DNA of 64,000 nucleotides from NCBI RefSeq assembly GCF_001677475.2, contig NZ_CP015229.1; one strand, 5' to 3'. A program made the position numbers. This DNA is from Escherichia coli (GTDB lineage: Bacteria; Pseudomonadota; Gammaproteobacteria; Enterobacterales; Enterobacteriaceae). Below, in pieces: positions 15,001 to 18,000 of this stretch (positions are counted from its first letter, which is position 1; each line of letters starts with the position of its first letter).

Positions 15001-18000
15001 TCAGTTTTTTCAATTTCTTATCTTCTCCTTAGGACGGCTGTGAAGCCAGTGCGTCTTGCAGATACTGAGGTAAGGCAAAAGCTGCCGTATGGATTGCCGG
15101 ATTGTAATAACGGCATTTCAGGCCAGAAGCGAGAAAACGCGCCTGAATAATTTCGGTTGAGAGATGGCGTAAGGCGTCGTTATCTGTCGCCCATGCAAAG
15201 GTCATGATGCCGCCGTAATAGGTCGGGATCGCCGCCTGATAAAAGCCAACATCGCTGAAGTAATGGCTGAGTTTGCGATGACTGTCGATAGCCTCTTCCT
15301 GCTGTAAAAAGCAGACGCCGTTTTGTGCGACGAAGATACCGCCAGGATTCAGGCAACGTTTGCAGCCTTCATAAAATGCTGAGGTGAACAGACTTTCGCC
15401 GGGGCCGATAGGATCGGTGCAGTCGGAGATAATGACATCAAAGGTCTGGCTGGTTTGATTCACGAAATTGACGCCATCGTCGATCACCAGCTTAAAGCGC
15501 GGATCGTCGTAGCTACCGGCGTTATGGTTGGGCAGATACTGACGGCAGAACGACACGACACCCGCATCGATTTCCACCATCGTGATTGACTCAACATTTT
15601 TGTGTCGGGTCACTTCGCGCAGCATGGCACCGTCGCCGCCGCCGATAATCAGCACATGTTTCGCGTGACCGTGGGCCAGTAGCGGAACATGGGTCATCAT
15701 CTCATGATAGATAAACTCGTCGCGCTCGGTGGTTTGTACTACGCCATCCAGCGCCATTACGCGGCCAAATGCGGCGTTCTCAAAAATGATCAGATCCTGG
15801 TGATCGGTCTTTTCATGATACAGAACGTTATCTACCGCAAAGTACTGCCCAAACTGGTCGTGTAGCGTTTCATGCCACTGTTTTTTTTCGGCCATGGGTT
15901 GATACCTCCTTTGTTAACACCCGTAAAAAAAGGGCGCAACATAATAGCTAACATTGACCGCGGATGCACGGTCAATATTTCTACAAAAAGGTATCAGGGA
16001 TTATTTGACGTAGGCAAGCAGGCTTAAGGAATCGCGAGCCAGGGCTTTGCACTTTTTAGCGACGGGAATGCCAATGCCGCTGAGATCGCGGTAGCTGTCT
16101 TCACCGAGAGCTTTCATGTCGAAGGTGTCGTAGTTGCTGAGATCCCACTGGTTTTGCTGGGCGAAAAAGACCAGTGCGCGACGAATTTGCCCGTTAGGTA
16201 AGTTCTGGTAACCACAATCGTTCTTCAGAAAGACAAAAACTGCCGTTAAATCGGCCATATCTTCGGCTTCAGACTCGCTGAGCGCGTAACTGTTTGCGCA
16301 AACGGCCATCAGGCTGCCGAATAACACTGTTCTGAAAAACGTCTTCATTGCTTCTACCAGGGGCTTAAAGAAGATAAACGTTAGCACACTGTGAGCGAGG
16401 CGACGACCATTATTGTCGATTAAATTGTGTCTGCGGCTTGACCTTCCCGTAAGGGGAAGGACTATGCTCAACGTTTGATTTTGTTTCGCCTGCTTAAGAA
16501 TAAGGAAATAACTATGCAACGTCGTGATTTCTTGAAATATTCCGTCGCGCTGGGTGTGGCTTCAGCCTTGCCACTGTGGAGCCGCGCAGTATTTGCGGCG
16601 GAACGCCCAACGTTACCGATCCCTGATTTGCTCACGACCGATGCCCGTAATCGCATTCAGTTAACTATTGGCGCAGGTCAGTCTACCTTTGGCGAGAAAA
16701 CTGCAACTACCTGGGGCTATAACGGCAATCTGCTGGGGCCGGCGGTGAAATTACAGCGCGGCAAAGCGGTAACGGTTGATATCTATAACCAACTGACGGA
16801 AGAGACGACGTTGCACTGGCACGGGCTGGAAGTGCCGGGTGAAGTCGACGGCGGCCCGCAGGGAATTATTCCGCCAGGTGGCAAGCGCTCGGTGACGTTG
16901 AACGTTGATCAACCTGCCGCTACCTGCTGGTTCCATCCACATCAACATGGCAAGACCGGGCGACAGGTGGCGATGGGGCTGGCTGGTCTGGTGGTGATTG
17001 AAGATGACGAGATCCTGAAATTAATGCTGCCAAAACAGTGGGGTATTGATGATGTCCCGGTGATTGTTCAGGATAAAAAATTTAACGCTGACGGGCAGAT
17101 TGATTATCAACTGGATGTGATGACCGCCGCCGTGGGCTGGTTTGGCGATACGCTGCTGACCAACGGTGAAATCTACCCGCAACACGCTGCTCCGCGTGGT
17201 TGGCTGCGCCTGCGTTTGCTCAATGGCTGTAACGCCCGCTCGCTCAATTTCGCCACCAGCGACAATCGCCCGCTTTATGTGATTGCCAGCGACGGTGGTC
17301 TGCTACCTGAACCGGTGAAGGTGAGCGAGCTGCCGGTGCTGATGGGCGAGCGTTTTGAAGTGCTGGTGGAGGTTAACGACAACAAACCGTTTGACCTGGT
17401 GACGCTGCCGGTCAGCCAGATGGGGATGGCGATTGCGCCGTTTGACAAGCCGCATCCGGTAATGCGGATTCAGCCGATTGCTATTAGTGCCTCCGGTGCT
17501 TTGCCAGACACATTAAGTAGCCTGCCTGCGTTACCTTCGCTGGAAGGGCTGACGGTACGCAAGCTGCAACTTTCTATGGACCCGATGCTTGATATGATGG
17601 GTATGCAGATGCTAATGGAGAAATATGGCGATCAGGCGATGGCCGGAATGGATCACAGCCAGATGATGGGCCATATGGGGCACGACAATATGAATCATAT
17701 GAACCACGGCGGGAAGTTCGATTTCCACCATGCCAATAAAATCAACGGTCAGGCGTTTGATATGAACAAGCCGATGTTTGCGGCGGCGAAAGGGCAGTAC
17801 GAGCGTTGGGTTATTTCTGGCGTGGGTGACATGATGCTGCATCCGTTCCATATCCACGGCCCGCAGTTCCGTATCTTGTCAGAAAATGGCAAACCGCCAG
17901 CGGCTCATCGCGCGGGCTGGAAAGATACCGTTAAGGTAGAAGGCAATGTCAGTGAAGTGCTGGTGAAGTTTAATCACGACGCACCGAAAGAACATGCTTA

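Follow-up and report, generated by a model that had tools for sequence, protein, structure and literature searches.

The window analysed here, a 64,000-nucleotide stretch of Escherichia coli DNA (contig NZ_CP015229.1), carries cueO in the gene order speE-yacC-cueO-gcd, as in K-12. E. coli has three main lines of defence against copper, of which CueO is one. The product of the gene is identical to the crystallised K-12 enzyme (PDB chains) at 511 of 516 positions, and it matches the NCBIfam equivalog model for CueO (NF008205) over residues 1-516, scoring 976.3 bits where the cut-off is 525. Pfam resolves three cupredoxin domains in it (Cu-oxidase_3, Cu-oxidase and Cu-oxidase_2), and all of its copper ligands are present (H101/H103, H141/H143, H443/H446/H448, H499/C500/H501/H505/M510). 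Across 123 multicopper-oxidase homologues, the four copper-ligand motifs of CueO are kept in 120-123, and the His residues of HPFHIHG in 121-122. The protein begins with a twin-arginine (Tat) signal peptide of the same sequence as that of K-12 CueO; the Pfam TAT_signal model gives 21.1 bits over residues 1-20, marginally under its cut-off of 22.7, and the mature chains in the crystal structures begin at residue 29. Upstream, where the sequence is again that of K-12, the promoter contains an inverted repeat, ACCTTCCC-N5-GGGAAGGA (16441-16461). We take this putative operator to be that of CueR, a MerR-type regulator, with its 19-bp spacer. The features discussed below are as follows.

16437-16468, plus strand: cueO promoter (TTGACC, 19-bp spacer, TATGCT)
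16514-18064, plus strand: cueO coding sequence, 516 amino acids and stop; periplasmic multicopper (cuprous) oxidase, activity predicted
16514-16597, plus strand: Tat signal peptide, residues 1-28 (MQRRDFLK...)
17576-17650, plus strand: helical, conserved half of the Met-rich insert, residues 355-379
17651-17719, plus strand: flexible, variable His/Met/Gly-rich loop half of the insert, residues 380-402
17684-17686, plus strand: Asp391 codon GAC (Gly in K-12), a lineage-specific substitution in the loop
17828-17836, plus strand: D439-M440-M441, with Cu5 ligands D439 and M441 in domain 3, outside the insert and the flagged range
17840-17860, plus strand: HPFHIHG copper-ligand motif (H443, type-1 copper, T1; H446 and H448, trinuclear cluster)
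17861-17863, plus strand: Pro450 (T450P), an unusual residue that adjoins HPFHIHG, near ligand H448
17612-17857, minus strand: antisense ORF, 81 amino acids, GTG start, in the codon-aligned antisense frame opposite cueO residues 367-448

The first-pass annotation had flagged positions 17570-17730 (CueO residues 353-406) as a Met/His-rich, ATG-rich anomaly, and the peptide that it quoted is the exact cueO-frame translation of 17576-17713. The enrichment is indeed far above chance. Residues 355-402 contain 14 Met and 5 His among 48 positions, so that a stretch of 48 residues, in a protein of 516, accounts for 14 of the 29 Met of CueO (hypergeometric P = 1.5e-8), and for Met and His together the enrichment has P = 6e-9. 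A further concentration of His, with seven residues between 380 and 406, has P = 7e-5. Elsewhere in the 64-kb window, across all six frames, a stop-free stretch of 48 codons holds 8 Met at most. Because Met has a single codon, the DNA of the insert is ATG-rich as well: the flagged segment has 15 ATG per 161 nt versus a window mean of 2.6 (sd 1.7, z = 7.3), which makes it the densest ATG spot in the 64 kb and the sole place with at least 11. Its GC content is 49%, versus 54% for the gene, as a consequence of the use of ATG and AAT/CAT codons. Separately, the triplet CAT is second densest at about 61984 (10 per 161 nt), a place that spans the degP-cdaR intergenic stretch and the first part of cdaR and is unremarkable.

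Rather than aligning with an ordinary part of the multicopper-oxidase fold, the segment falls between Pfam domains Cu-oxidase, which ends at residue 293, and Cu-oxidase_2, which starts at 396, and it is collapsed in homologues. Conserved anchors at residues 350 and 408 enclose 57 residues in E. coli CueO; in the 123 multicopper-oxidase homologues the corresponding median is 11 and the minimum 5, and most of them have the region shrunk to 5-11. Alignment to CueO structures places the segment in the same way: the flagged part is what was deleted in the engineered structure 2yxv, and the match to that chain is interrupted at residue 356. The identification of the gene as cueO and of the flagged segment as the known Met-rich insert of its product is therefore supported.

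In published structures, the insert is an alpha-helix over the T1 site followed by a loop that is disordered in most crystals (PMC6155172, PMC12041951). Given these descriptions and the 99% identity of the protein to those solved, we infer that the helix encoded here would likewise cover the T1 copper. The original description of the whole segment as a loop thus suits residues ~380-402, which are flexible and usually disordered, but not residues ~355-379, which form the conserved helix over T1. Following the published ligand assignments (PMC11494321), the helical half holds M355 and D360 of site Cu5, M358 and M362 of Cu6, and M364, M368 and M376 of Cu7. All four Cu5 ligands (M355, D360, D439 and M441) are present in this protein.

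We then compared the insert across 99 species-representative CueO loci of the Enterobacterales type. The insert lies at the same site in all 99, and its length between the anchors runs from 30 residues, as in Trabulsiella, to 125 (median 70), a variation of about four-fold that puts the Escherichia loop near the short end (57 residues or fewer in 18 of the 99 loci). Two CueO-like proteins of 470-471 amino acids (P0022 and P0025) were considered as natural deletions of the insert and rejected, as their 45-46 missing residues lie in domain 2 and the insert is intact. Both derive from metagenome contigs of short length and are possibly artefacts of assembly. Two further sequences, P0016, with an internal duplication, and P0017, with an E. 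coli-like N-terminus and a Citrobacter-like C-terminus, look chimeric and were set aside.

Conservation differs sharply between parts of the insert. M355, D360, G363 and M364 are kept in 99-100% of the 99 loci and D439 and M441 are invariant (99/99), so that the Cu5 ligands are kept in 98-99 loci, versus only 36-38 for the Cu6 ligands M358 and M362. This contrast agrees, independently, with the mutagenesis of 2024-25, in which Cu5 is the substrate site and Cu6 and Cu7 are negligible. The loop, by comparison, is hypervariable in sequence and constant in composition, with 18% Met and 13% His over the 99 loci. Tandem DNA repeats (15-nt and 24-nt units) encode it in Citrobacter gillenii and Serratia marcescens. 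Tandem Repeats Finder returned no tandem repeat in the E. coli insert (17400-17900, minimum score 30); the Escherichia insert therefore has no detectable DNA repeat, unlike those of Citrobacter and Serratia.

Collectively, our data make it almost certain that 17576-17719 encodes the Met-rich insert in cupredoxin domain 3 of a periplasmic, Tat-exported, CueR-regulated CueO, a helical lid joined to a Cu(I)-capturing loop. The identity of the gene, the status of the insert, the presence and conservation of the ligands, the variation in length and the spuriousness of the antisense ORF come from the present analysis. In the model that we favour, residues 355-379 would form an amphipathic helix over the type-1 copper that keeps out bulky phenolic substrates, and would contribute M355 and D360 to the labile substrate copper site Cu5, which D439 and M441 would complete. 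The Met, His, Gly, Asp and Asn residues of loop 380-402 would serve as a multidentate thioether/imidazole "net" of low affinity, which holds Cu(I) transiently, strips it from strong chelators and passes it to Cu5. There, Cu(I) would be oxidised to Cu(II), with the electrons travelling via T1 to the trinuclear cluster, where O2 would be reduced. That the insert binds copper, acts as a gate and recruits Cu(I) is taken into this model from the literature, and we infer the parts played by the His residues and by loop length. The two latest CueO papers that we examined treat the methionines only, and do not discuss a role of the His residues.

The experimental record bears on this model in both directions. 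The first-pass annotation held that the segment gates the substrate site, and published work agrees that the insert gates T1: the helix blocks access to it (PMC6155172), and deletion of the domain raises phenol oxidase activity 33-fold (PMC11494321). It also held that the segment binds extra Cu(I), which is borne out crystallographically, but the mutagenesis of 2024 found Cu5 to be the sole substrate site, Cu6 and Cu7 to be functionally negligible, and the domain to be dispensable for resistance in vivo though of use in drawing Cu(I) away from strong chelators (PMC11494321). Two observations from the same work count against our favoured model. CueO lacking the insert confers near-normal copper resistance in vivo under the conditions tested, and occupancy of Cu6 and Cu7 was observed solely for a soaked, T1-depleted crystal (PMC11494321).

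If the insert mainly bars organic molecules from T1, then its Met and His residues need have no meaningful part in copper capture. Such a steric filter would explain the 33-fold gain in phenol oxidase activity on deletion, and it fits with deletion mutants that match the wild type on free or electrogenerated Cu(I) and complement in vivo (PMC11494321), and with our finding in the 99 loci that the covering, helical half is the conserved one. However, a pure lid does not need a loop that keeps 18% Met and 13% His while its sequence varies freely, and deletion mutants that are near-wild-type on free Cu(I) retain only 10-20% of activity on the strongly chelated Cu(I)-BCA (PMC11494321). Activity is, moreover, higher with the longer Met-rich loop of the Hafnia enzyme (PMC12041951). 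We therefore consider a purely steric function unlikely.

The insert might instead help to load apo-CueO with copper while it matures or is exported by Tat, provide a dock for a periplasmic partner such as CusF, or act as a sacrificial Met sink that absorbs oxidants. Maturation and partner binding were raised as possibilities by the authors of the deletion study (PMC11494321), and PMC9302797 reports on oxidation of periplasmic Met-rich copper proteins and their repair by MsrPQ. Nevertheless, deletion mutants complement near-normally and the same authors argue against an essential partner interaction (PMC11494321), and the literature on CueO that we examined gave no direct evidence for loading, docking or Met-sink roles. 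Roles of this kind seem to us quite improbable.

Returning to the lid-and-capture model, we tentatively suggest, as a possibility we would not put higher than that, that loop 380-402 is an evolutionarily tunable copper-capture module, whose length is set by gain and loss of tandem repeats (units of the M-(D/N)-H-G type) and in which His is a conserved co-ligand. The Escherichia loop may then be a short, decayed version without repeats, and the G391D and T450P substitutions of the apparently divergent lineage studied here could shift copper affinity or turnover further.

The Met/His composition had also been said to produce a spurious antisense ORF at 17612-17857. The ORF exists and is spurious, but the composition does not specially produce it, as synonymous-codon shuffles of cueO contain a run of at least 82 codons in 99% of cases. 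The insert accounts for just 36 of the 81 codons of the ORF, and longer stop-free antisense runs, of 89 and 93 codons, occur elsewhere in cueO. A real small protein overlapping cueO might be argued from an 81-codon frame with a GTG start that is open also in K-12 and in 44 of the 99 species. Yet in this codon-aligned antisense frame stops arise only from sense TTA, CTA and TCA codons (the ORF ends at the CTA of Leu367), and the frame is broken in the other 55 species. Of seven differences from K-12 in this region, six are silent in cueO and six are non-synonymous in the ORF, which has neither a Pfam match nor a RefSeq-annotated gene. Taken together, the shuffles, the K-12 substitutions, the broken frames and the missing Pfam match lead us to reject the ORF as a gene, leaving a coding role barely credible, and the lesson for annotation is not to call genes from antisense ORFs that lie over Met/His-rich stretches. 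The notion that the low GC and extreme ATG density mark recently acquired or mobile DNA inside cueO can be dismissed almost outright: codon use accounts for the drop in GC, neither flanking nor tandem repeats were found at the insert (17400-17900), and horizontal transfer is rejected because the position of the insert, along with its conserved N-terminal half, is shared by all 99 CueO loci across Enterobacterales.

The CueO insert is a widely studied case of a Met-rich copper-handling region. The structure of CueO, its copper sites and its deletion mutants have been in print since 2002, with the function refined in 2024-25. The insert is thus already known, and its confirmation brings no new biology. 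Of modest value are the contrast between near-invariant Cu5 and variable Cu6 ligands across 99 species, the four-fold variation in loop length via tandem-repeat units in which both His and Met abound, and an allele that combines a rare loop Asp with a Pro adjoining a copper ligand.

The closest known system is K-12 CueO (YacK, b0123; PDB 1KV7, 1N68, 3OD3, 3NT0 and 5B7E), which occupies the same yacC-cueO-gcd locus and has the same insert length (57 residues between the anchors), with identical Cu5, Cu6 and Cu7 ligands and an identical promoter and CueR box. The two genes differ at 48 nucleotides (96.9% identity) and the proteins by five substitutions: G61E, S191N, A219E, G391D and T450P. The lineage-specific G391D and T450P are the sole unusual points of the window protein. 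Asp391 is rare in the loop, and a search of 5,426 complete E. coli genomes gave no copy of the 31-mer around its codon; Pro450 occurs in no other species sampled among the 99 loci. None of the 5,426 complete RefSeq E. coli genomes carries the allele as a whole, the nearest match reaching 98.3%, but the exact protein is present in 10 public contigs.

Beyond E. coli, Hafnia alvei CueO (PDB 8R4F; deletion variant 8R4H) shares the fold, the Cu5 site and the design of a helix with a disordered loop. Its loop has 22 residues and 6 Met more than that of E. coli, and the enzyme outperforms E. coli CueO on strongly chelated Cu(I) (PMC12041951); the H. paralvei locus has 79 residues between the anchors, versus 57 in E. 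coli. The CueO proteins of Citrobacter, Salmonella, Klebsiella and Serratia share the helical half (MDPxLDxxGMQxLxxKYGxQAM), the Cu5 ligands and a Met/His/Gly-rich loop. The loop measures 74 residues in K. oxytoca, 75-85 in the C. freundii group, 77 in S. enterica arizonae and 93 in S. marcescens, longer in each case than in E. coli, and it is built of tandem units such as HGNMN and NMKGMDHG, with detectable 15-nt or 24-nt DNA repeats. Within C. freundii, a 539-aa and a 544-aa form are set apart by a single HGNMN unit.

FtsP/SufI, CotA, bilirubin oxidase and the laccases have the same three-cupredoxin fold, with the four copper-ligand motifs also present in the catalytic members, but they carry 5-11 residues in place of the 57 of CueO. 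The FtsP/SufI model NF008135 matches the window protein over residues 2-291 only and reaches 295 of the 581 bits that its cut-off demands, and the laccase family model gives 38 bits versus a cut-off of 559; CueO falls outside the FtsP/SufI family. It likewise falls outside the PcoA/CopA family (TIGR01480, 117.1 bits versus a cut-off of 478.95). The plasmid-borne PcoA/CopA oxidases are also periplasmic multicopper oxidases with Met-rich regions that act in copper resistance (PMC6155172), whereas the cueO of the window is chromosomal and, judging by the likeness of its promoter, CueR-regulated.

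The segment at 17570-17730 lies in a plus-strand frame of 529 codons (16475-18064), within which cueO uses the ATG at 16514 as its start, giving a 516-residue product that begins MQRRDFLK. This protein matches CueO chains in the PDB, both full-length and mature, with E = 0, scores 976 bits against the NCBIfam CueO equivalog (cut-off 525), and carries all three multicopper-oxidase cupredoxin domains of Pfam, plus a Tat signal near threshold. Against FtsP, PcoA/CopA, laccase and ascorbate oxidase it scores far under each family cut-off. Five substitutions separate it from K-12 CueO (G61E, S191N, A219E, G391D and T450P), and the neighbour layout, speE, yacC (minus strand), cueO (plus strand) and gcd (minus strand), is identical to that of K-12. 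The promoter also has the same sequence as in K-12, and its inverted repeat is presumably the CueR operator:

16441-16461, upstream of cueO: inverted repeat ACCTTCCC-N5-GGGAAGGA, in a promoter with a 19-bp spacer

The first-pass annotation had described a Met/His-rich insert that is visible in the DNA as an ATG-rich anomaly. The interval corresponds to CueO residues 353-406, and the peptide quoted for it is the exact translation of 17576-17713. Of the 48 residues from 355 to 402, 14 are Met and 5 are His (hypergeometric P = 1.5e-8 for Met and 6e-9 for Met plus His), and seven His fall within residues 380-406 (P = 7e-5). In all frames of the 64-kb window, no other stop-free stretch of 48 codons has more than 8 Met. 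At the DNA level, 15 ATG occur within 161 nt, where the mean for the window is 2.6 (z = 7.3), and no other part of the window reaches 11. As expected from its ATG, AAT and CAT codons, the segment has a lower GC content than the gene (49% versus 54%). Tandem Repeats Finder detected no DNA tandem repeat in the insert of the window cueO. The compositional observation was confirmed in every part.

We asked how the segment relates to the multicopper oxidase fold. It does not align with an ordinary structured part of that fold, because it lies outside both flanking Pfam models (domain 2 runs to residue 293, domain 3 from residue 396), because the engineered deletion structure 2yxv aligns to the query as two stretches, the first stopping at residue 356, and because homologues are typically far shorter here. 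For this last point we aligned the query with five Citrobacter/E. albertii sequences and with full-length representatives of the hits of an exhaustive HMMER search (123 sequences in total), and took insert length as the residues between conserved anchors at query residues 350 and 408. Lengths range from 5 to 85 with a median of 11, compared with 57 in E. coli, and long inserts are typically Met-rich. The identification as an insert therefore holds.

The insert was also said to produce a spurious antisense ORF at 17612-17857. The ORF exists and is spurious, but the Met/His composition is not its special cause. Its frame is the codon-aligned antisense of CueO residues 367-448, in which stops arise only opposite the sense codons TTA, CTA and TCA; it ends at the CTA codon of Leu367. 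The scarcity of Leu and Ser in the region (4.8% versus 13.9%) helps the frame stay open. Overlap with the insert is limited to 36 of the ORF's 81 codons, longer stop-free antisense runs (89 and 93 codons) occur elsewhere in cueO, and when the synonymous codons of the gene are shuffled, a run of 82 codons or more appears in 99% of trials. Relative to K-12 the ORF has 7 differences, 6 of them synonymous in cueO and 6 altering the antisense protein, and the frame is broken in 55 of 99 species. The product has no Pfam match, and RefSeq annotates cueO alone at this position.

The comparison of insert length proposed for the Enterobacteriaceae was made on species-representative genomes scanned by DNA pattern for the C-terminal CueO motif, which yielded 120 loci, 99 with a measurable insert. 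Between anchors, these inserts span 30 to 125 residues (median 70). E. coli, E. albertii and the window share a length of 57, among the shortest (57 or less at 18 of the 99 loci), and longer inserts are found in Enterobacter cloacae (60), Klebsiella oxytoca (74), Salmonella enterica subsp. arizonae (77), the Citrobacter freundii group (75-85), Hafnia paralvei (79) and Serratia marcescens (93). The helix half is strongly conserved, with identity to the query of 100% at M355 and G363, 99% at D360 and M364, 96% at Y371, 95% at G372 and 92% at M376. The sequence and length of the loop half are hypervariable, yet its composition is constant (22% G, 18% M, 13% H, 8% D and 8% N), and an M-(D/N)-H-G unit occurs 120 times in the loop halves of the 99 loci. 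Length variation most likely arises by repeat slippage, since the C. gillenii loop (locus L117, 9818-9899) is encoded by a 15-nt tandem DNA repeat (unit NHGNM, 3.8 copies), the S. marcescens loop (locus L109, 2798-2916) by a 24-nt tandem DNA repeat (unit NMKGMDHG, 5 copies), and the 539- and 544-residue forms of C. freundii CueO differ by exactly one HGNMN unit. The Escherichia insert is a short, repeat-free version.

Two loci came from MAGs labelled Desulfovibrio sp. MES5 (L080) and Desulfobulbus sp. (L053), with CueO genes that share 60-74% identity with the E. coli enzyme; the L080 insert is the longest seen, with 125 residues and 22 Met. These deltaproteobacterial labels likely reflect mis-binning or horizontal transfer. 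Among metagenome-derived CueO-like proteins, two (P0022 and P0025) lack 45-46 residues of domain 2, one (P0016) has an internal duplication and one (P0017) looks like a chimera of E. coli and Citrobacter sequence; each was encoded on a short contig and is probably an artefact of assembly.

The copper ligands are M355, D360, D439 and M441 for Cu5, M358 and M362 for Cu6, and M364, M368 and M376 for Cu7 (PMC11494321), and every one is present in the window CueO. Cu5 ligands are near-invariant (98-99 of 99 loci), the Cu6 ligands are conserved in just 36-38, and the Cu7 ligands in 98 (M364), 64 (M368) and 91 (M376). The 2024 mutagenesis, in which Cu6 and Cu7 mutants behaved like wild type, fits this pattern (PMC11494321). 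M364 and M376 are well conserved even though Cu7 is dispensable by mutagenesis; their function in the helix may be structural. Deleting residues 358-407 or 361-396 lowers Cu(I)-BCA activity to 10-20% and leaves free-Cu(I) activity and in vivo copper resistance nearly intact; insert deletion raises phenol oxidase activity 33-fold (PMC11494321). The helix obstructs access to T1, and the loop after it is disordered in most crystal structures, being resolved only in 3OD3 (PMC6155172). In Hafnia alvei CueO, a loop with 22 more residues and 6 more Met better oxidizes strongly chelated Cu(I) (PMC12041951).

In the best-supported account, the helix half acts as a lid over T1 and contributes half of the Cu5 site. 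Cu(I) is bound transiently by the flexible Met/His loop and handed to Cu5, and electrons then pass via T1 to the trinuclear cluster for the reduction of O2. Identity, ligand presence and conservation come from our own sequence data; copper binding, gating and recruitment come from the cited papers. The conserved abundance of His suggests that these loop residues, too, have a role; the word histidine has zero occurrences in the Hafnia alvei CueO paper (PMC12041951).

The window cueO is 96.9% identical to that of K-12 at the DNA level (48 differences, 5 non-synonymous), and its best identity among 5,426 complete RefSeq E. coli genomes is 98.3%. The surrounding 22 kb (8000-30000), with gene order as in K-12, reaches at most 95.9% identity to any of them. 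Judged by these identities, the stretch, and probably the whole window, appears to come from a divergent lineage of Escherichia, which may be a cryptic clade. The exact protein occurs in 10 public contigs under E. coli names, so the substitutions are natural and sequencing error is ruled out. Two are rare:

17684-17686, plus strand: codon 391, G391D, inside the His/Met loop (HMGHGNMNH to HMGHDNMNH)
17861-17863, plus strand: codon 450, T450P, directly after the copper-ligand motif HPFHIHG (H448-G449)

None of the 5,426 genomes contains the 31-mer with the Asp391 codon. No species locus among the 99 has Pro at position 450 (T at 91, A at 4), and Pro is outside the six commonest residues there in the 123 wider homologues.

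About 7 kb upstream of cueO, YacH (DUF3300; yacH, 8931-10688) carries an extreme Asp/His tract, DWDDDDHDHHHHDDDDYHHHDGGH, at 9714-9785 (minus strand), the antisense translation of which is the window's second most Met-rich stretch. This tract is another potential metal-binding low-complexity segment. Two Rfam gathering-threshold matches are expected for this genomic region:

2425-2538, minus strand: tp2 sRNA, between pdhR and aceE
60461-60506, plus strand: HtrA (degP) 5' UTR thermometer

Collectively, the results uphold the flagged feature as real and identify it as CueO's Met-rich insert, a textbook element that is already known. Some residual interest lies in how repeats drive variation in insert length, in the conserved richness of the loop in His, and in the rare substitutions G391D and T450P. 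Trabulsiella odontotermitis (locus L089) has a naturally short insert, with 30 residues between anchors, in which M355 and D360 are kept but most of the helix and of the loop is missing; it is similar to the engineered 361-396 deletion.
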